Source: Candidatus Omnitrophota bacterium (GTDB lineage: Bacteria; Omnitrophota; Gorgyraeia; Gygaellales; JAQTUX01). From it: a stretch of 64,000 nucleotides of DNA. Every line of letters starts with the position of its first letter. The first letter of the stretch is position 1. Location of the stretch: NCBI GenBank assembly GCA_028707125.1, contig JAQTUX010000001.1, forward strand, positions 468,142 to 532,141, given 5' to 3'. Below, in pieces: positions 3,558 to 62,295 of this stretch. The notes beneath the pieces are model-generated. The model did not search any database, was not told the DNA's origin, and worked only from the letters and a program-made list of their open reading frames with translations. The position numbers and the translations under genes are program-made.

Positions 3558-5035
3558 TGCCTGAAAAATTCTACATAACCACTCCGATCTATTACGTGAA
3601 TGCCTCTCCGCACATAGGGCATTCCTATACGACGGTTGCCGCTGATACTATCGCGCGTTTTATGAGGGGCAGGATCGGCAAGGAGAACGTGCTCTTTCTT
3701 ACCGGCACCGACGAGCACGGCCAGAAAGTGCAGCGCGCGGCGGAAGAGGCGGGCGTGGCCGTGCGGGAATTCACCGACAGGACATCCGGGAAATTCAGGG
3801 ATCTCTGGCAGGCGCTGAACATCCAATACGACGATTTTATACGCACTACGGAACAAAGGCACATTGAGGCGGTGCAGAAGGTTTTAACCATGCTTTATGA
3901 TAAGGGCGATATCTTTCAGTCAAAGTATGAGGGGCTCTACTGCACGCCCTGCGAGACATTCTGGACAGGGACTCAAGCCGAGGACGGGCTCTGCCCTGAC
4001 TGTAAGCGCAAGCTGGAAAGCATAAGCGAGACAAACTTCTTCTTTAATCTTTCTAAATATCAGGAAGCGCTTATGAAGCATATCGCCTCGCACCCGGGTT
4101 TTATCCGGCCCAGGATACGCGAGAACGAGGTGATGAGCTTTCTTGAGCATAACCGCTTGTCCGACCTGTGCATATCGCGCCCCAAAGAGCGGCTGGGCTG
4201 GGGCATCCCGCTGCCGTTCAGCCCGGATCATGTTACCTATGTCTGGTTTGACGCGCTGATAAATTACATCAGCGCGATCGGCTTCGCGCGGGACAGGAAG
4301 AAATTTGATAAATTCTGGCCGGCGGACATACACATCATGGCAAAGGACATACTCAGGCAGCACGCCATATACTGGCCGATAATGCTCATGGCCCTCGGCG
4401 AGAAGCTTCCCGAGGTAGTGTTCGCCCACGGCTGGTGGAAGATAGACGAGAAAAAGATGTCAAAGTCACTGGGCAACGTGGTTGACCCCTATGCCATGGT
4501 TGAGAAATACGGCGTAGAGGCCTACAGGTATTTCCTGCTCAGAGAGGTGCAGTTCGGCTTTGACGGCAACTTTTCCGAAGAGGCGCTGGTCAAGCGCGTC
4601 AACAGCGACCTTGCCAACGATCTGGGCAATCTCGCGCACAGGAGCGCCACGATGCTGGAGAAATACTGCGCCGGAAAACTGCCGGAGAAAGGCGGAGCGT
4701 TCCCCGCTGATTTTGACAAGGCGCTGAAAGAACTGCCTGAGGCGGTAGAGGCGTTCATGCTGGAATACAATTTCAGCGCCGCCCTTGAGAAGATATGGGG
4801 ACTTATAAACAAGGCGAACAAATACATAGAAGACACAAAGCCCTGGGCCCTGGCAAAAGAAAAGAAGGACAAGGAGCTGTATCTGTTCTTGAACCTTCTG
4901 GTTGAGGTGATAAAGACAGTGGCCGCGGCCCTTGCCGCGCTTATGCCTCAGGCCTCGCAGAAGCTGTTGAAGCAGTTCTCGGCTCCAGAGATCAAAAAGG
5001 GCGAGCCCTTGTTTCCGAGAATAGAGACCAATTGA
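3557..5035 (+). CDS. metG: methionyl-tRNA synthetase (short form without C-terminal tRNA-binding domain)
   Basis: HIGH motif (PHIGHSYT), KMSKS motif (KMSKSLGN) and zinc knuckle CTPCETF...CPDC. Confidence 0.85.
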   Translation: MPEKFYITTPIYYVNASPHIGHSYTTVAADTIARFMRGRIGKENVLFLTGTDEHGQKVQRAAEEAGVAVREFTDRTSGKFRDLWQALNIQYDDFIRTTEQRHIEAVQKVLTMLYDKGDIFQSKYEGLYCTPCETFWTGTQAEDGLCPDCKRKLESISETNFFFNLSKYQEALMKHIASHPGFIRPRIRENEVMSFLEHNRLSDLCISRPKERLGWGIPLPFSPDHVTYVWFDALINYISAIGFARDRKKFDKFWPADIHIMAKDILRQHAIYWPIMLMALGEKLPEVVFAHGWWKIDEKKMSKSLGNVVDPYAMVEKYGVEAYRYFLLREVQFGFDGNFSEEALVKRVNSDLANDLGNLAHRSATMLEKYCAGKLPEKGGAFPADFDKALKELPEAVEAFMLEYNFSAALEKIWGLINKANKYIEDTKPWALAKEKKDKELYLFLNLLVEVIKTVAAALAALMPQASQKLLKQFSAPEIKKGEPLFPRIETN

Positions 5036-12244: not shown

Positions 12245-15200
12245 GTGTCGTTCACGAACAAATTACCTATCCTGATTTTAAAGAAAATAACCCAAACAGG
12301 GATACTCTGCGTATCCCTGTTTTTGTTTTATCTGCCATTTGCATTTGCAGACATATCTGCATCAGCCAATGTCGGTCTGACGTTAAACAGCGTTAGAGGC
12401 CGCACTATCATGGCAGGCGCCCGGCCGATTTCATTCACGTTGCGAGTTCAATACAACGGCACAAATCAACTGACTTTTGGCGCAGAAGGATTGCGGGGAA
12501 ATGCCACTTTAGACGCCCAGACAGGCAGGTTCTACTGGATGCCAGAGGAAACTGATGTAGGAACACACCCTATCACTTTCCGGGTAACAGATGGTGTAGA
12601 AACCGACCAAAAGACAGTCACATACACTATTCTGCATAACTCTACTCCTTACACGGGCTCAGTCAGTCCCGATGATGAGATAGTCCGCTCCAATGAACAG
12701 TTGGAGTTTATTGCTACTTATTTTGACAACGCCGGCTGGCAGGACATACAGGATGTGTATATGTCTATCGGAGGGGCTTACTTCAGGTATAACCTACCTG
12801 AAAATAAGCTATATGCCTCAAGTAACTTTTCCCAATGGAATGGCGGTTATACCCCAGGCACAGCACAGATCATACAGGTAGACTTGGACGAATGGCAGGC
12901 AAGACTGGATTGTTCCAAAGTTAATATAAATGGTTCAGGTAAGGCATTAGAAATTAAATGGCCCATTCTATTTATAAATAAGACGAGGCACAATATAAGA
13001 AAGAACGTCTCTTTGTATGCTAAAGATAGAAACAACCTTGATTCCGGCTGGAGGGAGTCAGGGGAGATTAAAATTAGAGGATTAAAAGGCCGCATCCTTA
13101 CCTTTGGTCAGACCATAATAGATACTATTTCTAAAGAAAACTTTACTGTGACCTACACCTTTAGCGCCTCTAAAGACGACTACATCTACATGGCATTTGC
13201 CAAGACAGAAGGAAGTGACTTCCAGCCCTACCTTCAGTTATTTGATCCAAGCGGCAGCCATATTGCTTACGTATACGATACCACAGCCAACGCGCTCGGC
13301 ACGACACTAACCGCAACAGGCAGATATGTGTTAACCGTCTCAGACCACAACGGCGAAAATACCGGCAGCTACGCTTTGACCCTTCAGCGCTTTAATAACC
13401 CGGGCCAGGCATCTGCCCTAACTGCAGGCCAGACCCAATCCGCCTCCATATCAGCCCCCTCTGAAATAGACGCCTACAGCTTTACAGCGGCCTCAGCCGA
13501 CACCTTGATCATAAACCTGGTCAAGACATCAGGAGAGTTTAGGCCCTACATAGGAGTATATGACGATAAGGGCAAGCTGCTTAAAAAAGTTGATACCTCT
13601 TCTTCAGTCACCTTAAGTATGCCGCTTGCTCGGGCAGGGGTTTACTACATCTATGTGAGGGACTCCTATAACTATGAGACAGGAAGCTACAGTATAGCCC
13701 TGCAGGGCGCCAGCAATCCTGAACTTATCCAGCTCTCCTTCGGCCCTACAGTAACAGGCGCTATCTCTGCTGCAAGCCCGACAGTCACCTACACCTTTAG
13801 CGCCTCTAAAGACGACTACATCTACATGGCATTTGCCAAGACAGAAGGAAGTGACTTCCAGCCCTACCTTCAGTTATTTGATCCAAGCGGCAGCCATATT
13901 GCTTACGTATACGATACCACAGCCAACGCGCTCGGCACGACACTAACCGCAACAGGCAGATATGTGTTAACCGTCTCAGACCACAACGGCGAAAATACCG
14001 GCAGCTACGCTTTGACCCTTCAGCGCTTTAATAACCCGGGCCAGGCATCTGCCCTAACTGCAGGCCAGACCCAATCCGCCTCCATATCAGCCCCCTCTGA
14101 AATAGACGCCTACAGCTTTACAGCGGCCTCAGCCGACACCTTGATCATAAACCTGGTCAAGACATCAGGCCAGTTTACGCCTCGTCTGACAGTATATGAC
14201 AGTAAGGGCAAGCGGCTTGAGAGCGCTAATATCTTTTCAGATACCTTAAGCGCCTCACTTCCTCAGGCAGGCGTCTACCACATCTATGTAGTGGACTCCT
14301 ATAACTATGAGACAGGAAGTTATGACATAAGCCTGCAGAGCGCCAGTAATCCCGATGGCGCTGTAGACATTGCTTTCGGTGAGACAGTAACGGGTGAGAT
14401 TTCTTCTCCTATGGATACGGATGTATATGGCTTTACCGTAAATGAAGGTGATAATTTATACGCGGATATACGTTTTCCCAAAGTCAGCGGCAATAGTTAT
14501 TTCTCTCCATATGTGCGGCTGTATGATAGGTCAGGCAATATGATTGCCGATTCTACCTCGGGTATGCTTCTTCACTCTTTGCCTTCCGCAGGAACTTATT
14601 ATATTTTTGTCTCCGACAATTATATGGATGCCACAGGCAGCTATCAACTTACTCTGTCCAATGAGACCCCTGATATAGATAATCTTTCAGTTACGCCCAA
14701 TCCTTTTTCTCCGGACGAAAGCGGCACCTGGGTAGATCTGGATACAGGGGAAATATTCAACGACCCGGGGCCTAACCGCGTTCTGGACGATGTAGCCAAT
14801 ATTTCTTTTACCGCCTCTATGCAGGGATTTTTTGATATCAAGATTATTGATAGTAACAGCCAGCTGGTCAGGCAGCTTGTTTATGACGTATTAACTCCGG
14901 ATCACCGGACTAATTTGATACGAGTGCAGTGGAATGGCCGCAGCCAGAATAGTGATTTAGTTCCAAACGGCGCGTATACGCTGATAGTAAACTCCGGAAA
15001 TGTTGACAGGTGTCTGACCGCGACAATTAATGTAAACAAAATTGTTTTTATCACTATTGCCAGAATAACGCCAAATCCTTTTTCTCCTGACCGTGACGGT
15101 GTAGACGAAACAACCACCCTTTCTTACAGTTTATCTGAGAATTCCTATGTCAGCGTAGAGATTTATAACCAGCAAAATACTCTATTAAGAAAGTTAGCAG

Positions 15201-16279
15201 ACAATCAACTCCTTAGCTACGGCAGCCATAGCCATATCTGGGACGGTAAAGATAGTCAGGGTGCATACCTTCCTGAAGGCAGATACACTGTGAAGATAAG
15301 CGCTAAGGCAGAGGATGGAAAAGACGCAGCTCCTGTTTACCTGAATGTTGCCATACTGTTTATTTCTGATATCCGTATTTCTACGGACGAGATTAATCCT
15401 TACGCAGGAGAGGCCGTAACCATATCTTATAGAATGTCACATGAAGGCGTTTTAAATATTAAAATTTATAATAATAAAAATGCATTGGTAAGGAATCTTA
15501 TTCTAAACCAGCCCCGCCAGTCAGGCACATACTCAGAGGTTTGGGATGGCAAAGATAATGCCGGCAGGATTGTGCTTGACGGCGCCTACTATTTTATCAT
15601 AGAGGACAGCAAGGGTGGCGCTGTCTATGATCCTCGCGGCACAGGCGGGAAAGATATCTCCGGCAGCATCCGCCTGTCGGCATCTGATTTTAATCTGCTT
15701 CTTAATCAATTCTGTGTTATAGATTATACTCTGCCCCAGGCAGCAAAGATTAATCTTAAGGTCCGCTATGATAGATATTCAGGCCCGGCTGTCAGGGTGT
15801 TGAAATATCAAGAGCCGGTTTCTTCAGGCGCGCACCAGACGCTCTGGGACGGCAGGGATGAGACAGGAGATTTTGTTGACCGTACTGATTTTACCTTTGC
15901 CATCTGGGGATATACATTGGATGAGAATTCCATTTTGGTTGTGGGAGATAGACCTGTAATTAGCAATCCGGCTATTATCCCGGTCCGTTTTAGCCCTTAT
16001 GATAATCCTTATAGCACAGGTGTTTCAGAAGGCACAATCTCCTTTAATCTATCCAGAGATGCCAATGTTACGATAAATATTTATGATTCTGAAGGTAATC
16101 TGGCGCGCAATCTGCTGAATAATCAGCCCTGCGCGCAGGGCAGCAATTCTTTTATCTGGAACGGCAGAAATAACGAAGGTAATTTTGCGTCTGAAGGGTT
16201 TTATCGGGTAGCAATTCAGGCGGAAAAAGACGGCAATTATTCGGAAGGTTATACCTTGCATACGGAGATTTTCTATTGA
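12245..16279 (+). CDS. giant secreted surface protein with tandem PPC (pre-peptidase C-terminal) domains followed by ~5 FlgD-Ig-like domains
   Basis: Signal peptide. Repeated ...DAYSFTA...AGVYYIYV.DSYNYETGSY motifs (PPC-like). Repeated NPFSPD..G......L.Y.L.....V.V.IY....L.R.L...Q..G.H...WDG motifs (FlgD-Ig-like). GTG start. Confidence 0.6.
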   Translation: MSFTNKLPILILKKITQTGILCVSLFLFYLPFAFADISASANVGLTLNSVRGRTIMAGARPISFTLRVQYNGTNQLTFGAEGLRGNATLDAQTGRFYWMPEETDVGTHPITFRVTDGVETDQKTVTYTILHNSTPYTGSVSPDDEIVRSNEQLEFIATYFDNAGWQDIQDVYMSIGGAYFRYNLPENKLYASSNFSQWNGGYTPGTAQIIQVDLDEWQARLDCSKVNINGSGKALEIKWPILFINKTRHNIRKNVSLYAKDRNNLDSGWRESGEIKIRGLKGRILTFGQTIIDTISKENFTVTYTFSASKDDYIYMAFAKTEGSDFQPYLQLFDPSGSHIAYVYDTTANALGTTLTATGRYVLTVSDHNGENTGSYALTLQRFNNPGQASALTAGQTQSASISAPSEIDAYSFTAASADTLIINLVKTSGEFRPYIGVYDDKGKLLKKVDTSSSVTLSMPLARAGVYYIYVRDSYNYETGSYSIALQGASNPELIQLSFGPTVTGAISAASPTVTYTFSASKDDYIYMAFAKTEGSDFQPYLQLFDPSGSHIAYVYDTTANALGTTLTATGRYVLTVSDHNGENTGSYALTLQRFNNPGQASALTAGQTQSASISAPSEIDAYSFTAASADTLIINLVKTSGQFTPRLTVYDSKGKRLESANIFSDTLSASLPQAGVYHIYVVDSYNYETGSYDISLQSASNPDGAVDIAFGETVTGEISSPMDTDVYGFTVNEGDNLYADIRFPKVSGNSYFSPYVRLYDRSGNMIADSTSGMLLHSLPSAGTYYIFVSDNYMDATGSYQLTLSNETPDIDNLSVTPNPFSPDESGTWVDLDTGEIFNDPGPNRVLDDVANISFTASMQGFFDIKIIDSNSQLVRQLVYDVLTPDHRTNLIRVQWNGRSQNSDLVPNGAYTLIVNSGNVDRCLTATINVNKIVFITIARITPNPFSPDRDGVDETTTLSYSLSENSYVSVEIYNQQNTLLRKLADNQLLSYGSHSHIWDGKDSQGAYLPEGRYTVKISAKAEDGKDAAPVYLNVAILFISDIRISTDEINPYAGEAVTISYRMSHEGVLNIKIYNNKNALVRNLILNQPRQSGTYSEVWDGKDNAGRIVLDGAYYFIIEDSKGGAVYDPRGTGGKDISGSIRLSASDFNLLLNQFCVIDYTLPQAAKINLKVRYDRYSGPAVRVLKYQEPVSSGAHQTLWDGRDETGDFVDRTDFTFAIWGYTLDENSILVVGDRPVISNPAIIPVRFSPYDNPYSTGVSEGTISFNLSRDANVTINIYDSEGNLARNLLNNQPCAQGSNSFIWNGRNNEGNFASEGFYRVAIQAEKDGNYSEGYTLHTEIFY
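13148..14169 (+). repeat. intragenic tandem duplication, 636-bp period; 386 bp are 100% identical between units (13148-13533 vs 13784-14169)
   Basis: Exact DNA identity, giving an identical 128-aa peptide TVTYTFSASKDDYIYMAF...LVKTSG. The adjacent halves of each unit are only ~60-70% identical. Confidence 0.9.
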
Positions 16280-16285
16280 TATGGG

Positions 16286-16717
16286 GTGGACGGGATGAAA
16301 AAAACGAGTATGTATATTCTGTTTTTCATAGCCGCATTCTCTTTTAATCTTTTAGCAAAAGAGGCGTATCAAAACCAGTTGATTTTGGAATTAAACTTTC
16401 CAAAAGAAAGCACTGCTAAAATGGAGGCGCCGCGACCAAAGGCAGAGGCCCTGTCCATTTCCGGCGAAATCCTTGTTAACATCAGCCCTGTTCCTGAGAA
16501 AATAGAACAGGACAGGTATTTGGTGGAGTATTTCTTAGATGAGCAGTTAATATATCGAACCACCGGTTTTGACAGGCGCACTTTTGCCTGTATTCTGGAT
16601 ACTGCCCAATATGAAAACGGCACGCATAAGCTGATCATTAATTTCTGGGATAAATCCGGCCCTTCAGCCATCGGCATAAGAGAGCTTATCATTAACAACG
16701 AGGAAACAAATGAATAA
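16286..16717 (+). CDS. hypothetical secreted protein
   Basis: Signal peptide MYILFFIAAFSFNLLA and no recognisable motif. Lies immediately upstream of rhs with a 4-nt overlap. Confidence 0.3.
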   Translation: MDGMKKTSMYILFFIAAFSFNLLAKEAYQNQLILELNFPKESTAKMEAPRPKAEALSISGEILVNISPVPEKIEQDRYLVEYFLDEQLIYRTTGFDRRTFACILDTAQYENGTHKLIINFWDKSGPSAIGIRELIINNEETNE

Positions 16718-19700
16718 CCGCCTCCTGAAGATCCTCTCGGTATTCACGCTTTTCTTCTTTGTTTCCAATATCTTCATACCCCCTGTAGCCCTTGCCGAGC
16801 TTCCCTGCTGGAACGATGCCTCGCTTGCTTCCGGAGAGGGCGGGGTAGATGATGCAGCCACCGCAGGCGGCAAGCCCGCTGGCATAAACCAGAAGAACAG
16901 GACAGAGGCAGCAGATCCTGTTGATGTCTCAAACGGCAATTTCTTCTACCAGAACCAGGATTTATCCATCCCTTCACGAGGACTCTCCTTAGAGATAAAG
17001 CGCTTCTACAACAGTTTAGACACCTACGAAGGCCCCTTTGGCATAGGCACAAGCCACAGCTATAATATATTCTTGTTGGAGATTTCAGAAGCAAGCCAGA
17101 CATACGTTCTAAGGCGTAACGCCAACGGCTCAAAGGACAGATTCCTGCGGAATGCCGACGGTTCCCATACACCTTCAGCTGGCTGCTATGACACCTTAAC
17201 CAAAGACACAACCGGCTACCTGATACAGGACAAGTATGGCTTCATCTATCGCTTTGGTTTAGATGGTCGCCTTAACTCAATCACTGACCGAAACAACAAC
17301 ACAATCTCCTTAGAGTATGACTCACAATCATCTGTATTAAGCAGAGTCAGCGACAGCTTAAGCCGCTTTATTGAATTCGCTTATAACCCCCAGCGCAAGA
17401 TAAGCCAGGTAAGCGACTCTACCGGCCGCCTGATCTCATATGAATACGATTCAGACGGCAATCTAATCTATGTAACCACTCCTGCCACAGGGGATTATCC
17501 TTCAGGACTGACTACCACATACGCCTACGACGATAAGCACAGGTTAACCTCCATAACAAACGCCAGGGATAGGCGATATATATCCCTGGAGTATGATGAA
17601 AATAGCCGCGTAAAGGATCTTACCTATGGAGCAGGCGTATATCGCTTTAGCTATAAGAGCGCTCTTACAACCCTTATTGACCCCAGGGGCTTTACGACAG
17701 AATACGAGCTTAATACAGATGGCACAGTCCAGAGCCAGAAGCAATACGCCGGCAGCTCATCTTATCAAACCAGATACGAATACAACCAGAACCGCGAGCG
17801 CACCAGGATAACCTATCCTGAGGGCAACTGGGTTAAATACACCTATGATAATAAGGGCAGCATTCTGGAAATCAGGCGCAAGAAAGCCAACGCCTCTGAC
17901 AGTGATGACCCTGCAAATGACATAGTAGCTGCCTTTAGCTATGAGCCGCAGTTTAACTTCGTCAAGACCGCAACAGACCCTAAGGGCAACGTTACTACCT
18001 ATGATTATGACTCAAAAGGAAATCTCATCAAAATAATCTATCCGGCTGTTAACGGCGTAAAACCCGAAGTTAAATTCGCCTATAGTGCTTACGGCCCGCC
18101 AACCAGCGTAACAGACCCTAACGGTAATGTAACTACCTATGATTACGACCCTGATACTGGATACTTAGTCAAAACAACCGCTGCTCAAGGCGTTCTTAAC
18201 CTTATCACCCGGTTTACCTACGACACAACCGGTAACATCAAAACCGTAACCGACCCCAAAGGCAGCACCACGACATTTGAATACGACAGCCACAACAACC
18301 TGATTAAGACCACATCCGCTTCACCATTTAACTATGAGACCCTCTATAAATACGATGAGAACGATAACCTGATTGAGCTCCACAGACAGACCGGCGACCC
18401 TGATAATCCCTGGCAGACAACCTCCTACACCTATGATATCCTTGACCGGCTGGACTCTGTCAAAGACGCCATAGGCAATACCTCTAACTTTATCTATGAC
18501 TTAAACGGCAACCGCCGCTCGCTTGCAGATGCGGAAGGTAATACTACTACTTATGAATACGATGAACGCAATCTACTCTGGAGGGTAACCGACGCAGAGA
18601 ATAATGTTACAGAATACTCCTACGATACAAACGGCAACCTCAAGCAAATCACTGACGCAAAAGGCAATGCTACCGTCTACACCTACGACAGCTTTGATCG
18701 GCTCATCTCTACCACCTACGCTGACGACTCAATAGAGGAATACACCTATGACGCCAATTCCAACCTCATCACCAAAAAAGACCCCAAAGGCCAGGTCATC
18801 ACCTACGCCTATGACTCCATTAACCAGCTGGACTTAAAGACCTATCCTGATAAATCAAGCGTTGACTATGTTTATGACATCGGCTCCCGGCTTGTTGATG
18901 TCATTGACAAAATCGGCACCATACACTATGACTATGATGCGGCCAGCCGAATTACCAGCGTAACCTATCCCGGCAATAAATCCGTCTCTTACGAATACGA
19001 CGCCAATTCCAACCGCAGCAAGCTAACCTACCCCGATAATACCTATCTTACCTATATATATGATGAACTCAACCGCCTGACCAATGTAGTTGCCCCATTG
19101 ATGGGGCAAGGCAGTGCCGTCGCCTCCTACACCTATGACGCCCTCTCCAGACGCACCCGGCTTGACTACCTCAACAATACCTACTCGCTCTATGACTATG
19201 ACCCAGCCAGCCGCCTGACAACGCTTACCAATGTCTCTAACTCTATACCTAACCCCTACTCCTACACCTATGATAACGCGGGCAACAGGACGTCATTGCG
19301 AGGAGCCGAAGGCGACGAAGCAACCTACACCTATGACAAGACCTACCAGCTCACAGCCGTCAACTACCCTGACGGCTTTGCCTTCTTTGACACTGCCTAC
19401 GACTATGATGAGATAGGCAACCGCACGACAAACTACACCTCAAACTCCCTCAACCAATATACCAAGGCAGGTACAACCAACCTCGCCTACGACAGCAACG
19501 GCAACCTCACCAATGACGGCAGCTTCACCTACGCCTATGACTACGAGAACCGGCTGGTGAGCGCCTCGTCATTGCGAGGGAGCGAAGCGACCGAAGCAAT
19601 CTACGCCTACGACCCCTTCGGCAGGCGCACCTCAAAGTCATTGCGAGGAGCCGAAGGCGACGAAGCAATCTCCTACATCTACGATGGCGACCAGATCATC

Positions 19701-20468
19701 GCGGAATACGACGCAAGCAACAATCTCATCGCTAAATATATCTATGGTACGGGTATAGATGAACCCATTCTTATGCAAAGGGGGGAGAATGCTTATTACT
19801 ACCACTTTGACGGCCTGGGAAGCGTAGTAAACCTCACCGACTCTTCCGGCTCAAAGGTTGAAAGCTACACCTACGATGCCTACGGTAATCCCATTATCCA
19901 CGATCCATCATCCAATATCCTTCTTCAATCCTCCGTTGGTAATCGCTACATGTTCACAGGAAGAGAATATGATGATGAGACGGGGCTGTATTACTACAGG
20001 GCGAGGCATTATTCGCCGATGATTGGGAGATTCTTGCAGAGGGACTCTTGGCCAGGAATACCAGAAGATCCCGGTTCACTCGTTAATAAATATACCTACT
20101 GCTCCAACAATCCCATAAATTGGATAGATCCTTATGGGTGGGATAAACAGAAGAAGGATCAACCATGGTGGATTGTAGTTGGAGGTATTACAGTAGCTAC
20201 ACCTATTCAAGGGGATGAAGCAATCTTTTGGACAGGAGTAGGTATAGTTGCAATAGGTAGTTATGCTGTTCATCAGTTTAGTAAATATCACGCAAAAGGT
20301 CCGTTATGGAATGCTCCAGGTATGCCAGGGTGGAATTTAAGGCAATATGAAGAACGACAACCAGGAGCTTTCAAGCCACCGCCAAATTTTAAGAATTGGA
20401 AAGATAGAATTATATGGGCAGCTGGTTTACTCGCTAAATTATTTAATAATTTCAGAGGAGGCAGATGA
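16710..20468 (+). CDS. rhs: Sec-secreted Rhs/YD-repeat polymorphic toxin with variable C-terminal domain
   Basis: Signal peptide, dozens of YD repeats (xYxYDxxGNL) and the Rhs core ending ...YYYRARHYSPMIGRFLQRD...NNPINWIDPYGW. A ~120-aa divergent hydrophobic C-terminal domain follows, in visibly AT-rich DNA. Confidence 0.8.
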   Translation: MNNRLLKILSVFTLFFFVSNIFIPPVALAELPCWNDASLASGEGGVDDAATAGGKPAGINQKNRTEAADPVDVSNGNFFYQNQDLSIPSRGLSLEIKRFYNSLDTYEGPFGIGTSHSYNIFLLEISEASQTYVLRRNANGSKDRFLRNADGSHTPSAGCYDTLTKDTTGYLIQDKYGFIYRFGLDGRLNSITDRNNNTISLEYDSQSSVLSRVSDSLSRFIEFAYNPQRKISQVSDSTGRLISYEYDSDGNLIYVTTPATGDYPSGLTTTYAYDDKHRLTSITNARDRRYISLEYDENSRVKDLTYGAGVYRFSYKSALTTLIDPRGFTTEYELNTDGTVQSQKQYAGSSSYQTRYEYNQNRERTRITYPEGNWVKYTYDNKGSILEIRRKKANASDSDDPANDIVAAFSYEPQFNFVKTATDPKGNVTTYDYDSKGNLIKIIYPAVNGVKPEVKFAYSAYGPPTSVTDPNGNVTTYDYDPDTGYLVKTTAAQGVLNLITRFTYDTTGNIKTVTDPKGSTTTFEYDSHNNLIKTTSASPFNYETLYKYDENDNLIELHRQTGDPDNPWQTTSYTYDILDRLDSVKDAIGNTSNFIYDLNGNRRSLADAEGNTTTYEYDERNLLWRVTDAENNVTEYSYDTNGNLKQITDAKGNATVYTYDSFDRLISTTYADDSIEEYTYDANSNLITKKDPKGQVITYAYDSINQLDLKTYPDKSSVDYVYDIGSRLVDVIDKIGTIHYDYDAASRITSVTYPGNKSVSYEYDANSNRSKLTYPDNTYLTYIYDELNRLTNVVAPLMGQGSAVASYTYDALSRRTRLDYLNNTYSLYDYDPASRLTTLTNVSNSIPNPYSYTYDNAGNRTSLRGAEGDEATYTYDKTYQLTAVNYPDGFAFFDTAYDYDEIGNRTTNYTSNSLNQYTKAGTTNLAYDSNGNLTNDGSFTYAYDYENRLVSASSLRGSEATEAIYAYDPFGRRTSKSLRGAEGDEAISYIYDGDQIIAEYDASNNLIAKYIYGTGIDEPILMQRGENAYYYHFDGLGSVVNLTDSSGSKVESYTYDAYGNPIIHDPSSNILLQSSVGNRYMFTGREYDDETGLYYYRARHYSPMIGRFLQRDSWPGIPEDPGSLVNKYTYCSNNPINWIDPYGWDKQKKDQPWWIVVGGITVATPIQGDEAIFWTGVGIVAIGSYAVHQFSKYHAKGPLWNAPGMPGWNLRQYEERQPGAFKPPPNFKNWKDRIIWAAGLLAKLFNNFRGGR

Positions 20469-20962
20469 TAAAAAATAAATTACTTTTTCATATGATACCA
20501 ATAGAAGATAGAACTAATAAAGGTTATAAGAATTTAGTTGAAAATATTTTAAAACATGCTTTCTATTTTATTCCAGCAGAAGATTTGGAGGGAATAGAAA
20601 AAATAATACTTTTAGATGAATGCCAAGATCGAGAGTTTAAATGGGCGGGTGGATTTTATTATGCCTATGAAGAAAAGGATGCTATTATAGAACTGTATCC
20701 TCCAAAAATAATAGATGCAAAACCATTTTTTGTTCCAACATCAAAATTCTTTAATAGTTACTCAATCACTAAGATGTTTTTGCATGAATTGGGACACCAT
20801 AAATTCGGAAATGTGCAGGAACGAGAATTCAAAGCTCAAGAATACATGGTGTTATATATTAAGAAAATATATGGCAATTGGATTTATTTTTTTGATTTTT
20901 TAGCTAGACTAGATAATTTTTTACGTAAGTTTCTCAAAACCTTCAACAAAAAAGCAATGTAG
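20465..20962 (+). CDS. small protein downstream of the Rhs C-terminus: candidate immunity protein or HExxH zincin-like partner
   Basis: ATGA overlap with the rhs stop and GGAGG RBS. Contains HELGHH (HExxH) at residues ~107-112. AT-rich. Confidence 0.35.
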   Translation: MIKNKLLFHMIPIEDRTNKGYKNLVENILKHAFYFIPAEDLEGIEKIILLDECQDREFKWAGGFYYAYEEKDAIIELYPPKIIDAKPFFVPTSKFFNSYSITKMFLHELGHHKFGNVQEREFKAQEYMVLYIKKIYGNWIYFFDFLARLDNFLRKFLKTFNKKAM

Positions 20963-21022
20963 TATAACGAAAAAACGCCAACGAAGCTTTACATAACTAG
21001 CAATACATAATGGGCATAACGG

Positions 21023-21036
21023 GGACGGTTCTCTTT
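21023..21036 (+). repeat. REP-like motif GGGGACGGTTCTCT (copy upstream of RAYT)
   Basis: Same 13-14-mer occurs at 206-220 (+) and as the reverse complement at 21775-21790. Confidence 0.6.
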
Positions 21037-21157
21037 ATCATAACCTTAACTATCATAATCACTTACAACACCTACTTTATAAATTTTAAGATTTCTTGCA
21101 AGTAAACGCCTCATTTTTGCGTCTATTATAGTAGAAGGGCAGAAAGGGGGCGTTTTT

Positions 21158-21763
21158 ATGCCACGAGACAGAAGGCACATACCAGAGGCAGGTTTCCTGC
21201 ACGTTATATCCAGAGGCAACAACAGAAGGAAGATATTTCGGTATGAGAGAGATTTAGAGGCGTATTATTCAATTCTTCTTCAAAGCAAAGCAGAAGACAG
21301 AATCAACATCTCTCATTATTGCCTGATGAGCAATCATATACACTTGATACTGGAGGTAAACGAAGCAAGCAACCTTTCCAGGTTCATGAAGCGGGTAAAC
21401 CTGAGGTACGTCTACTATTACAGAAGAAAGTATGCCTACTGCGGCCATCTCTGGCAGGACAGGTTCAAGGCAAAGACTATAGACAATGAGGAATACCTTA
21501 TTCAATGCGGCAAATACATAGAGCTGAATCCTGTTAGAGCGGGCATAGTCAAGAGACCTGAAGAATATCGGTTTTCCAGTTACCTCCACTATGCTTATGG
21601 AGCTGAGGATGTATTGATACAAGATAATCCTTTCTACTCTGAATTGGGAGAGAGCCAAGAGCGAAGGCAAACAATTTACAGAGATATGATTATAGAAGAG
21701 ATGATAGAGAAGGGCCTAAGACAGGAAAAAATAATTGAGCACTCAGAACTTATTGCGGTATAA
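21158..21763 (+). CDS. REP-associated tyrosine transposase (RAYT) / IS200-like Y1 HUH transposase
   Basis: HUH motif SNHIHLILEV and catalytic Tyr region YYYRRKYAYCGHLWQDRF, with N-terminal HVISRGNNRRKIF. Flanked by inverted GGGGACGGTTCTC motifs. Confidence 0.75.
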   Translation: MPRDRRHIPEAGFLHVISRGNNRRKIFRYERDLEAYYSILLQSKAEDRINISHYCLMSNHIHLILEVNEASNLSRFMKRVNLRYVYYYRRKYAYCGHLWQDRFKAKTIDNEEYLIQCGKYIELNPVRAGIVKRPEEYRFSSYLHYAYGAEDVLIQDNPFYSELGESQERRQTIYRDMIIEEMIEKGLRQEKIIEHSELIAV

Positions 21764-21774
21764 TAGATAACAGC

Positions 21775-21790
21775 AAGGAGAACCGTCCCC
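21775..21790 (-). repeat. REP-like motif (inverted copy downstream of RAYT)
   Basis: aggagaaccgtcccccc is the reverse complement of GGGGACGGTTCTCCT. Confidence 0.6.
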
Positions 21791-59804: not shown

Positions 59805-60775
59805 TGTCAGAAACAATAGATTACAAGATAATATTATCAAGATTTCCATGGATTGTTGAGAAAAATCAGAATGTTATACTAAGTCCTGATTGCGATGGGT
59901 TTTTATGCGGATTATTAATGTCTAGTTTTCTAGGATGGAAAATAGTTGGTTTCTACGATGGCAAGATTCTTATATTAAAAAAGGGCCTAAAGACAAGGGA
60001 CTGTGTATTTCTAGATATGGAGATCTTTAGGAAAGACATTAGAAGTGTAGGGCATCATATGCTTATGTTCGATGTTCGTAATCTACCGTCTAATTGGGAT
60101 AATTTTAATAATTGTATCCAGCCAAACAATATAAGAGGATTTGATTTTCGTAGCAGTTTTAACCTGAAATACCCGCTTGGTACGATCCATTTTCTTATAG
60201 GGATTTTAGCTCAAAGTGTAAAGATAGATATTCAGGAAAAAGCAATTTGCCCCATGCTTTTTGTAGATGGCACATTTAAGAACTTATTCAATTTCCCGGA
60301 AAATTGTTTAAGTTGGCTCCATTTTTTAAAAGCAGATTGTTTAGAGAACCCGCTACATAAAATATTTTATAATAATTATTATTCTGTGAATGAATTAATG
60401 GTTGCGTTGAAGGATTTATTCCAGAAATTAAGAGAGATTAATCACGGTAAGAGAGGCGGGGATAAGCTTAAAATATCTAACTCAAGGGGCGATATTCAAA
60501 GTTTTCAATATAAAGGAAAATTTTACGCTTTGGAAGATGATAAGAAAGTAAAGATAGAAAATTTGTTGAAGTTATTATCCGGATTAACAGGATGGAAGTA
60601 TGATTCTAACGATTGGCAATGGAATGATATGAATTCATTTATTTTCTCAAAGTCCTCAATAATGCCGCGTAAAAAAAACTACTATCCTTTGATGGACAGC
60701 AATCCTTTATCTTATGCTATCACAGGTACCCTGTCGCTAGAATACACCCTGGAAAAACCAAATAATCTGCCTTAG
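59804..60775 (+). CDS. candidate restriction endonuclease (no conserved motif identified)
   Basis: Translationally coupled to the C gene and convergent with the methyltransferase; AT-rich. Assignment is by context only. Confidence 0.3.
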   Translation: MSETIDYKIILSRFPWIVEKNQNVILSPDCDGFLCGLLMSSFLGWKIVGFYDGKILILKKGLKTRDCVFLDMEIFRKDIRSVGHHMLMFDVRNLPSNWDNFNNCIQPNNIRGFDFRSSFNLKYPLGTIHFLIGILAQSVKIDIQEKAICPMLFVDGTFKNLFNFPENCLSWLHFLKADCLENPLHKIFYNNYYSVNELMVALKDLFQKLREINHGKRGGDKLKISNSRGDIQSFQYKGKFYALEDDKKVKIENLLKLLSGLTGWKYDSNDWQWNDMNSFIFSKSSIMPRKKNYYPLMDSNPLSYAITGTLSLEYTLEKPNNLP

Positions 60776-62295
60776 GATGTAATGTTAACAAGTTCGAATT
60801 CTTTTTGACCAACATTCGCCTCTTGTTTTGTTCGTTTTTCTGCCAGTTTACAATAATCTTCAGAGATATCAAAACCTATGTATTTTCTGCCTAGCTTTAT
60901 AGCAGCGATAGCAGTTGTTCCGCTGCCCATGTATGGATCTAAAACTATACCCCCTGGTGGGCAAAAGCAGCGAATAAAGTCGACAGGTAGCTTATCGGGA
61001 AAGGTAGCAGGATGCTGATGTTTTAACCGTGTGCCGTCTCCACAAGTCACATAATCCCAAATTGTACCTCTACATTTTACAGGATTGATTGTTACTTTCT
61101 TTGATTTCAATGTATGTCCATTCGTCAAGCGAGTAGCACATCCGGTCATCGTTTTCCCGCCATGCTTACTCGGTATCTTAAGAGGGGTTTTATTGAAATA
61201 TTGCGGTCTTGAACCTTTAAGAAAGATTGGTATATATTCATGATCAACCCTAAATCTTTTTGTCCACCAAGCGCCTTCGCCACCGTGCTTTCTGTAAATA
61301 ACCGTCTCAAATAATTTAAACCCGACATTTTCACACCAATCAATTACGGTTTTAAATGTAGTTAATGTCTTGCCGAAGTTTTTAGTTTGGTCTTGTATAA
61401 CCATCGCGGTAATCCCGCCTTCTTTTAATACCCTATAAATCTCTTTCCCAGTAGCATGAAGATCATAAGTAAACCCATTATATGCTCTTATGCCATCATA
61501 CGGAGGAGAGGTAACGACTAAATCAATTGAATTATCCGGTAATTTTCTCAATCCCTCCACACAGTCCATGCATTGAACAGTGTTTAGCCATTTCTTCAAA
61601 TAATCATCTGTCTTAACGGAGTCCTTGATTTTTTTATTACCTAATACATTCGTGATTGTAGAGTTATCTGTGCTAGCCGGACTTTTAATAATATCGACAA
61701 CTATTCCTTGGATAGTAAGATGATCGGGGGCTACTAAAATAGGTTCCATGTTAGAATTTGCTGGTTCTAGCCGTATTCTATTTCTTTCTTTATAGAATTT
61801 TTTTAGCGTGACTTCTTTATTTTCCAACAGCGCAACAATTCTTTCGCCATTCTGAGCCGTACTTTGTTGTTTTATTACCACTATATCACCATCATCAATA
61901 TTTTCTTCTATCATGCTTTTGCCAGCTACTTTTAATGCAAAATAATTGTCACTTGCTTTTATTTTATCTTGAGGAACAGCTATACTTTCTCTATCTTCTA
62001 CTGCTTCAATTGGTGTACCTGCAGCTATTCTGCCTAAAAGTGGTATTCGGATCAAATTTTGTTTGGCAAAAACATCCAATGCTCGAGGATGGTTTTCCTC
62101 TTTTCTTAAATACCCCATATTTTGTAGCGTTTGGACATGATAGTGGGCCGTTGAGACAGAAGAAAGGCGAAGGTGTTTTTTGATTTCTTCTAGGGAAGGC
62201 GCGTAATCGTGCTTATCCTTGTAGCTTTTTATGAAATCTAGTACCTGTTTTTGACGTTTAGTAAGCATTTTAATAACCCTTGACTTTCGATTCAT
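60772..62295 (-). CDS. LexA repressor (wHTH + S24 autopeptidase) fused in frame to a beta-class (N4C/N6A) DNA methyltransferase
   Basis: N-terminal ~200 aa align to LexA: LTKRQKQVLDFI...SSVSTAHYHVQTLQNMGYLRKEENHPRALDV, cleavage site GRIAAGTP, Ser in AGKSMIE, Lys in VTLKKF. C-terminal MTase: motif IV VVTSPPY, then motif I FDPYMGSGTTAIAAIKLGRKYIGFDISEDY. Alternative start at Met 62268 (MLTKRQ). Confidence 0.75.
   Translation of the reverse strand: MNRKSRVIKMLTKRQKQVLDFIKSYKDKHDYAPSLEEIKKHLRLSSVSTAHYHVQTLQNMGYLRKEENHPRALDVFAKQNLIRIPLLGRIAAGTPIEAVEDRESIAVPQDKIKASDNYFALKVAGKSMIEENIDDGDIVVIKQQSTAQNGERIVALLENKEVTLKKFYKERNRIRLEPANSNMEPILVAPDHLTIQGIVVDIIKSPASTDNSTITNVLGNKKIKDSVKTDDYLKKWLNTVQCMDCVEGLRKLPDNSIDLVVTSPPYDGIRAYNGFTYDLHATGKEIYRVLKEGGITAMVIQDQTKNFGKTLTTFKTVIDWCENVGFKLFETVIYRKHGGEGAWWTKRFRVDHEYIPIFLKGSRPQYFNKTPLKIPSKHGGKTMTGCATRLTNGHTLKSKKVTINPVKCRGTIWDYVTCGDGTRLKHQHPATFPDKLPVDFIRCFCPPGGIVLDPYMGSGTTAIAAIKLGRKYIGFDISEDYCKLAEKRTKQEANVGQKEFELVNITS

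Follow-up and report, generated by a model that had tools for sequence, protein, structure and literature searches.

The C-terminal region (CT) of an Rhs/YD-repeat protein and the open reading frame (ORF) directly behind it, found in a 64,000-nucleotide stretch of DNA from a Candidatus Omnitrophota bacterium (contig JAQTUX010000001.1, positions 468,142 to 532,141; hereafter the window, in whose numbering all coordinates are given), are likely to form a toxin/immunity cassette in which the place of the immunity gene is taken by a protein that very probably has a metal-binding zincin fold. The Rhs gene occupies positions 16710..20468 on the + strand and encodes 1252 amino acids (aa) plus a stop codon. 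Its last 108 aa (aa 1145-1252; 20142..20465, + strand) constitute the AT-rich CT, and the partner ORF of 165 aa, as defined from the ORF list and the alignment of its homologues, follows at 20465..20962 on the same strand, with an alternative start at ATG 20492 that gives 156 aa. The parts named in an initial annotation of this DNA, an Rhs toxin, the end of its core, a switch to AT-rich DNA and an overlapping ORF with a HELGHH motif, are all present here; only the CT is shorter than the ~120 aa estimated there. The explanation we favour, at just short of an even chance, is that of a polymorphic-toxin cassette on a Sec-exported Rhs protein, whose zincin partner would be the cognate immunity protein that binds and probably cleaves the conserved tail of the CT.

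Our statements on linkage cover the loci with a partner homologue and readable upstream DNA. In every one of them the same CT tail, whole or cut down to a remnant, lies directly 5' of the partner homologue (the window, L011, L014, L015, L008-L010, L007, L005/L006 and L016). In L011 the tail ends a full Rhs protein of 1519 aa, whose stop codon lies 1 nt before the partner start, and L014 shares the neighbourhood of the window; downstream of its partner lies a permease-like gene, MRILDRY..., in convergent orientation. Orphan arrangements also occur. L007 shows, in this order, a putatively phospholipase-A2-like (PLA2-like) Rhs CT, a multi-transmembrane protein of 120 aa, an orphan piece of the core to which a window-type CT is joined, and the partner. 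In L015 the neighbours of the cassette are more orphan Rhs CTs, here of the Gly-rich transmembrane type, together with a multi-transmembrane protein. On a 23-kb contig the main Rhs and some small ORFs precede an orphan YD fragment of 246 aa, behind which the partner lies. L004 and L001 each have a main Rhs equipped with a CT and a membrane immunity gene of its own; downstream of these lie a Y1 transposase, a remnant of the tail (56 aa in L004, ~25 aa in L001) and an intact partner that keeps HELGHH and E in both loci. Diverged homologues are found behind Rhs CTs as well: the CT before P0031 (L017, 30% identity) shows a hydrophobic stretch, KDPLWEAPGNPGW, NFKPPNNW and, as its last element, a helix, and P0033 (L022), at 25% identity, has before it an Rhs CT that is different and rich in Pro but closes in a similar 'WW-helix', PKTWWGRFLEKIADFL. 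No conserved third gene was found beside the pair across the loci examined. The CT thus has the properties by which polymorphic toxins are recognised, in that it is variable, of distinct base composition, exchanged between related cores and present in orphan cassettes. That the partner persists where no functional CT is left is to be expected if it is an immunity gene, but not if it is a toxin, an effector dependent on a carrier or an enzyme dedicated to maturation. Of the roles that the initial annotation had considered for the ORF, that of a zincin-fold immunity protein agrees with these comparative data, as the partner occupies the immunity slot, co-varies with the CT and is kept where the CT is truncated.

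Another of these roles, that of a second effector, is highly improbable. The partner would then be a small zincin toxin, of the size of the Tox-MPTases, with the CT tail as its carrier or adaptor. However, it is never fused to Rhs, has neither a signal peptide nor a transmembrane segment (maximum 19-residue Kyte-Doolittle mean, KD19, 0.92) and gives no Pfam Tox-MPTase match; there is no conserved third gene that could provide immunity against it, it is kept alone and intact in orphan loci, and its standalone relatives occur in housekeeping contexts. An alternative explanation is that the partner acts in the producer cell, where it would trim the Rhs C-terminus ahead of export as a processing or maturation peptidase, or chaperone it as a holding factor. 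The intact active site would agree with this, as would the tight coupling of the two genes, with a Shine-Dalgarno-like AGAGGAGG (20454..20461, + strand) within the last CT codons (F-R-G-G), 3 nt 5' of ATG 20465; moreover, the CAAX metalloproteases of bacteriocin loci can, in the account given in PMC9298176, process rather than immunise. In L001 and L004, however, the intact partner stands beside a CT remnant that is separated from the Rhs core, where a processing enzyme would be useless. Also, the cassette holds no other candidate immunity gene, and the Rhs core already has a predicted autoproteolytic boundary of its own. We therefore consider a processing role unlikely.

The coupling itself is less uniform than the window suggests. 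Here the partner ATG at 20465 overlaps the Rhs stop codon TGA at 20466-20468 (ATGA), as annotated initially, and no promoter-like or terminator-like site was found between CT and partner. However, most partner homologues start at the equivalent of M10 (ATG 20492, 'MIxIEDKT'; 25-sequence alignment A1), which shows that neither the exact start nor the overlap is a conserved feature, and the gap between CT and partner in relatives ranges from +1 to +52 nt. We therefore rejected the ATGA overlap as a conserved mark of coupling.

Within the CT, the conserved part is a 57-aa tail (K1196-R1252; 20295..20465, + strand), which has 22 invariant columns in the CT alignment (A2) and reads KGPLWxAPGMPGW..QYE..QPGxFxPPPNF..W..IIWAAGLLAKLF... 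The tail is net positive (10 K+R against 3 D+E) and contains 7 Pro and 7 Gly. Its PPPNF motif (P1223-F1227; 20376..20390, + strand) is invariant in A2, with KPPNNW standing in its place in the diverged L017, and may, speculatively, be a recognition or cleavage site. The tail ends in a predicted amphipathic helix, W1230-F1248 (WKDRIIWAAGLLAKLFNNF; 20397..20453, + strand), whose hydrophobic moment is 0.37 in the window and reaches 0.59 in L015, and which is visible at low confidence in an AlphaFold2 (AF2) model of the CT from its single sequence (pLDDT 40). Hydropathy and the CT alignment show two Gly-rich segments of moderate hydrophobicity in the N-terminal part of the CT (N-part), one at W1153-I1166 and one at I1172-F1190, with QGDEA between them (20166..20279, + strand). 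This part is variable: the window, L011 and L015 have the type WWIVVGGIT.A.PI.GDE..FW..VG, L014 has a single continuous and more hydrophobic stretch (KD19 2.06), and L008 and P0025 have an unrelated hydrophobic IAIADDI... segment before the same 57-aa tail. The two segments had been described as strongly hydrophobic. They are indeed present, but the best KD19 of the window CT is 1.25, below the usual transmembrane threshold of 1.6, and in most members of the CT family both segments are likewise of marginal hydrophobicity.

The divergence of the partner correlates well with that of the tail (r=0.92 for 15 pairs from 6 loci, 0.73 without the outlier L017), and not with that of the N-part (r=0.35 for the same pairs, -0.40 without L017). 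For example, the window and L008 share 84% identity in the tail and 75% in the partner, with only 24% in the N-part. These values suggest, but no more than suggest, that the partner co-varies with the 57-aa tail rather than with the hydrophobic N-part. The initial annotation had deduced a membrane-inserting effector from the hydrophobic segments; the idea itself is possible, but it points to the wrong segment, as the N-part is swapped and the tail is what is conserved.

As the initial annotation supposed, the CT belongs to no recognised toxin domain: it had no family match in Pfam (E<=10), NCBIfam, PADLOC or PDB sequences, and its sole PHROG match is weak (E=0.16). A Pfam scan of the CT sequences of 8 relatives (E<=1) revealed no described toxin domain. 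The sub-threshold matches among them were one of 22 residues to DUF6942 and a weak one to ExoD (E=0.23), of which the former, to a CT remnant, was judged to be compositional and discarded (20 bits over 22 residues, against a cut-off of 27). With regard to Tox-WTIP, the CT has no Pfam match and neither the RxxR nor the Wx[ST]IP motif. By its sequence, the assignment of the CT to an Rhs C-terminal module outside the described toxin families is supported. The family is rare, as the CT alone retrieved 1 homologue and a profile of 7 CTs retrieved 4. The CT is set apart by a drop in GC content: the core has 0.45-0.55, against 0.40 for 20150-20449 and 0.29-0.33 for 20300-21050. Pairwise dN/dS for the CT is 0.13-0.26, values that are rough because dS is saturated.

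The partner has 24 close homologues (E<=1e-40 in 5.8 billion clustered proteins; 149-178 aa, 50-100% identity), which have neither a Pfam domain nor a name. Its dN/dS is 0.13-0.26 within the clade of the window and up to 0.41 against the diverged L017 pair (again rough, with dS saturated), and both the ORF and the CT are under purifying selection. In A1, which comprises 25 sequences, H107, H111 and E121 are invariant, as are D15, D51, C53, G62-G-F-Y65 and E76-L-Y-P79; E108 is kept in 24 of the 25 and H112 in 23. A HMMER profile of the family found 166 distant relatives (E<=1e-3 in 1.84 billion representatives), mostly of 150-200 aa. Across 67 of these, aligned at ~22% identity (A3), Y65 and H112 are invariant, and no fewer than 90% of the sequences have H107, E108, G110, H111 and E121. 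Three of the 67 have C-terminal TPRs and one has a weak Peptidase_M60 match (E=0.0029); none matched a zincin Pfam family above threshold. These ~160-aa zincins, with their 166 cluster representatives, are a previously undescribed family, unnamed or 'hypothetical' wherever a name was checked.

An AF2 model of the partner built with its homologue alignment (pLDDT 87.7, pTM 0.83) shows a small sheet, a long helix (94-113) that bears HELGHH (H107-H112; 20783..20800, + strand), a motif of the zincin active-site helix which both A1 and A3 conserve, and a next helix (120-136) with E121 (20825..20827, + strand) at its start. E121 and H112 are the candidates for the third metal ligand. A Foldseek search of the PDB, proposed as a check in the initial annotation, gave weak matches for this model, of which the top nine are all zincin-type proteins, and among viral models an IrrE N-terminal-like protein came first (E=6.4e-5). 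The HExxH on the active-site helix and the modelled fold place the partner in the zincin superfamily, as the zincin-like motif had led the initial annotation to consider. At the level of sequence families there is little to be seen. The sole Pfam signal is to WLM (E=0.087; 13.3 bits against a cut-off of 26), no match to the M78 ImmA/IrrE, Zincin_1, SprT or Tox-MPTase2-5 Pfam families exceeded the curated threshold, and nothing significant appeared in NCBIfam, PADLOC or PHROGs. Neither the partner nor its relatives matched the immunity families of polymorphic toxins (Imm1-74, SUKH, SuFu and others in Pfam). Searches of PDB sequences with A1, A3 and, for the CT, A2 returned merely His-tag and compositional matches; a profile scan of the contigs of GTDB species representatives recovered no relative at the sensitivity used, and tblastn of the partner against plasmids and phages gave no match. 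The partner ends in a predicted amphipathic helix (aa 145-162, FLARLDNFLRKFLKTFNK; 20897..20950, + strand; hydrophobic moment 0.73), and a C-terminus that is first hydrophobic and then basic recurs across the superfamily in A3. This helix is a possible membrane-surface or toxin-contact element.

The conservation of HExGHH...E across 67 relatives at ~22% identity, the Rhs-linked P0031 and P0033 included, argues for a working active site rather than a relic. If the partner is an immunity protein, the choice between protection by cleavage and protection by binding alone is nonetheless close to evenly balanced. The same cassette could work through tight stoichiometric binding, perhaps with the tail held in the cleft as a pseudo-substrate and the His and Glu residues needed for metal-dependent folding. 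The co-variation of tail and partner is what one expects of an interface, and one close homologue, P0007, has HGLGHH in place of HELGHH and has thus lost the catalytic Glu, while in two others N replaces H112. Nearly all known immunity proteins are binders, and Imm-ARG has been described as the sole enzymatic one (Zhang et al. 2012, PMC3482391). However, 24 of the 25 close sequences have E108, as do at least 90% of the 67 distant ones, Rhs-linked clades with different CTs among them, and a pure binder would be free to lose its general-base Glu. We regard binding alone as possible but rather doubtful. Zincin clefts bind extended peptides. Given this, and since the Glu and the metal ligands are kept throughout, we think it most likely that the tail would dock as a substrate and be cut.

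In the mechanism we favour, that of immunity by cleavage, the CT would be freed from the Rhs shell by self-cleavage at DPYGW. The variable, Gly-rich and moderately hydrophobic N-part would then serve as a membrane-insertion or entry element, and the basic tail, rich in Pro, Gly and Trp, would act with its amphipathic helix at the cytoplasmic side of the inner membrane of the target, or face it. There the tail could be reached by the soluble, cytoplasmic partner, a meeting place that is consistent with the absence of a signal peptide and of a transmembrane segment from the partner and with the net positive charge of the tail. The tail, extended and rich in Pro, would enter the active-site cleft of the co-transcribed partner and be cut there, so that the partner would be a dedicated single-substrate protease in the manner of the ImmA/IrrE enzymes. 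In its full form, with an active metallopeptidase that cleaves incoming or leaked Rhs toxin in its conserved Pro-rich tail, the 57-aa tail as the toxic principle and a swappable hydrophobic segment for entry, this mechanism is offered tentatively.

Several points weigh against this explanation. The toxicity of a non-enzymatic CT of 108 aa is assumed, its hydrophobic segments stay under the classical transmembrane threshold in most members, and the co-variation was obtained from 6 loci, whose 15 pairs are not independent. Besides the substitutions in P0007 and in the two homologues without H112, it is conceivable that the metal ligands are conserved for stability alone. Against a membrane-acting toxin the immunity protein is usually itself a membrane protein, as in the neighbouring cassettes, whereas the partner is soluble. 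Two of its relatives are standalone genes outside Rhs loci: P0036, a zincin plus TPR (L019 7001-7825), lies beside an uncharacterised 469-aa protein and TldD/PmbA, and P0039, WP_005008084.1 of Nitrospina gracilis (L104 8001-8558), is divergent from a two-component system. The ancestral role of the fold is therefore probably not immunity, and it seems that a general small cytoplasmic zincin was recruited into Rhs cassettes.

Finally, Sec export and hydrophobic segments at the C-terminus might mean no more than that the protein stays anchored in the membrane of its producer. The N-terminus of the Rhs protein reads, in the translation, as a predicted Sec signal peptide, MNNRLLKILSVFTLFFFVSNIFIPPVALA, with E as the next residue (16710..16796, + strand). 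The CT could then be a membrane anchor whose cytoplasmic tail holds the periplasmic Rhs shell on the inner membrane, in a teneurin-like manner, with the zincin binding or regulating that tail. A signal peptide, one or two C-terminal hydrophobic segments and a basic tail fit a stop-transfer arrangement and the positive-inside rule, and the partner is cytoplasmic. However, the module is swappable, occurs beside clearly toxin-like CTs that have their own immunity genes and is also found in orphan fragments; moreover, the two hydrophobic segments are marginal in most members and the cleavage site of the core would release the shell. An anchor is thus very unlikely.

The carrier is an Rhs/YD protein, with matches to RHS_repeat, DUF6531, YD_repeat_2x and Rhs_assc_core. 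It contains 18 RHS-repeat stretches (PF05593, Pfam, E=8.7e-89), matched also as YD repeats by TIGR01643 (NCBIfam, E=6e-52), and a DUF6531 domain at aa 69-141 near the N-terminus (Pfam). The Rhs-associated core was recognised by TIGR03696 at aa 1055-1143 (NCBIfam, 78.1 bits against a cut-off of 32.5) and extends to DPYGW (aa 1055-1144; 19872..20141, + strand); its terminus reads NNPINWIDPYGW, with W1144 as the last residue. The protein thus has the multiple RHS/YD repeats and the core closing in DPxG[LW] that define Rhs/YD polymorphic toxins. Self-cleavage at the end of the core is established for Rhs/Tc proteins, and by analogy the autoproteolytic boundary is predicted to lie after W1144.

Rhs/YD systems such as WapA/WapI of Bacillus subtilis and RhsA/RhsI resemble the window in the YD shell, the DPxG[LW] end of the core and the AT-rich variable CT, and they share with it a closely linked gene downstream as well as CT/immunity cassettes that occur as orphans. 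WapA/WapI also offers a parallel for a Sec signal combined with a cytoplasmic partner. Unlike in these systems, the CT of the window is a non-enzymatic module of 108 aa in two parts, and the immunity slot holds a zincin outside the Pfam Imm and SUKH families. Polymorphic-toxin immunity is almost always stoichiometric binding. In the literature searched we found no zincin or HExxH immunity protein; HExxH appears there only in toxins or in releasing peptidases. In the census of 2012, too, the zincins of polymorphic toxin systems are either toxins (Tox-MPTase1-5, HopH1, ALF) or releasing peptidases, and Imm-ARG is named as the sole enzymatic immunity protein (PMC3482391). Imm-ARG/Tri1, an ADP-ribosylglycohydrolase directed against ART toxins, resembles the partner in keeping the active site of an enzyme in the immunity slot. 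However, the folds are unrelated, and Imm-ARG reverses the product of the toxin, whereas the partner would have to act on the toxin itself, which is too small to be an enzyme.

The nearest functional precedent, by analogy, is found in the CAAX/Abi (CPBP) metalloproteases of bacteriocin loci, for which roles in immunity, in processing or as receptors are reported beside membrane-active peptide toxins, as summarised in PMC9298176 from Kjos et al. 2010. These are putative metalloproteases next to a small toxin, with the same ambiguity of role, but they are integral membrane proteins of an unrelated fold with EExxxR/FxxxH motifs and belong to Gram-positive class II bacteriocin loci, not to Rhs. 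Among small zincins, the partner has no sequence-level membership in ImmA/IrrE (M78), Wss1/SprT, Zincin_1 (3e11/2ejq), YbeY or the minigluzincins. For comparison with these minimal cytoplasmic enzymes, it carries HExGHH with a Glu 10 residues after the second His. ImmA/IrrE enzymes are found with an Xre-type repressor and the partner in an Rhs cassette. As for the CT, Tox-WTIP, a two-helix pore-forming CT on Rhs or other carriers (PMC3482391), and the Gly-zipper toxins Tse4 and Ssp6 are likewise short, C-terminal and hydrophobic. However, they pair with membrane immunity proteins, whereas the window type conserves a soluble Pro-rich tail and has a soluble immunity candidate. CdiA-CT consists of a variable entry domain and a toxin domain that is co-inherited with CdiI, and thus also combines a swappable N-part with a C-terminal part that travels with its immunity gene. 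The carrier there is CdiA and not Rhs, and the N-part of the window is a short hydrophobic stretch rather than a folded entry domain.

Some further features of the Rhs gene and its surroundings were noted. The methionyl-tRNA synthetase encoded in the window is most similar, at 57% identity, to those of Omnitrophota MAGs, which weakly assigns the DNA to this little-studied lineage. A repeat of ~30 nt, CATTGCGAGGAGCCGAAGGCGACGAAGCAA, occurs three times in frame within the gene (19292-19323, 19568-19599 and 19637-19668), encoding SLRGAEGDEA-like inserts at YD-repeat junctions; two of the copies are 100% identical. The repeat forms no hairpin (z=0.54), and no further copies were found elsewhere in the window or in the 105 retrieved loci, while the Rhs fragment of L016 contains a peptide that resembles these inserts. 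Directly 5' of the Rhs gene lies a gene for a secreted protein of 1344 aa (12245-16279) with five FlgD-Ig domains, PPC domains, CHU_C/Por_Secre_tail (T9SS-type sorting) signals and an internal near-duplicate block of ~200 aa, followed by a 143-aa signal-peptide protein (16286-16717). Large surface proteins are also found beside the cassette in L001, L008 and L011. At 60772-62295 on the - strand, a 506-aa ORF of unusual architecture fuses LexA DNA-binding, S24 peptidase and N6/N4 DNA methyltransferase domains (Pfam E-values 3.7e-17, 4.4e-30 and 7.7e-41, respectively).

Just 3' of the cassette is a gene for a Y1/IS200-like REP-associated tyrosine transposase (21158-21763; PF01797, E=3.9e-18; 76.7 bits against NF047646, whose cut-off is 80). 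Inverted 16-nt repeats, GGGGACGGTTCTCTTT, bracket it (21021-21790), and a third copy of their 13-mer core lies at 205-217. L014 lacks the transposase, so the copy in the window has the appearance of a ~770-nt insertion. At 32-37% identity, diverged homologues with flanking inverted repeats of their own lie by the same cassette in L001 (5101-5896) and L004 (5006-5823), there upstream of the partner, with the CT truncated; the repeat in L004 abuts the start of the conserved tail. Further Y1 transposase homologues lie downstream of the partner in L005/L006 and in one further contig. We considered whether partner and transposase form one mobile unit and rejected this idea, as the cassettes of L008, L011, L014 and L015 have no transposase, and as the transposases lie on different sides and have different flanking repeats.

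The neighbouring cassettes differ in type. The main Rhs of L001 (781-4875), L004 (538-4734) and L007 (1-842) has a different CT, with PYGNYGGP...DE.FMxHDxGW motifs by which it reads as phospholipase-A2-like, and the small multi-transmembrane protein after each of these CTs is presumably its immunity protein. The Rhs proteins of L001 and L004 have precomputed Peptidase_C39 matches and, by eye, a TPR-like N-terminus. L015 contains two orphan Rhs CTs (150-773 and 3812-4816) with long Gly/Ala-rich, Gly-zipper-like hydrophobic stretches, and next to them a multi-transmembrane ORF of 125 aa. The Rhs loci of this lineage seem commonly to carry small membrane-directed CTs.

The CT tail and the ~160-aa zincin superfamily are two protein families that curated libraries have missed, and the member from Nitrospina gracilis offers a cultivable entry point for the biochemistry of the latter. 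If immunity by cleavage is true, it would be the first case of proteolytic immunity among polymorphic toxin systems. The enzymatic destruction of a toxin would follow a different logic of immunity, in which one immunity molecule clears many toxin molecules, specificity is set by a short peptide tail, and resistance could spread as a standalone gene.

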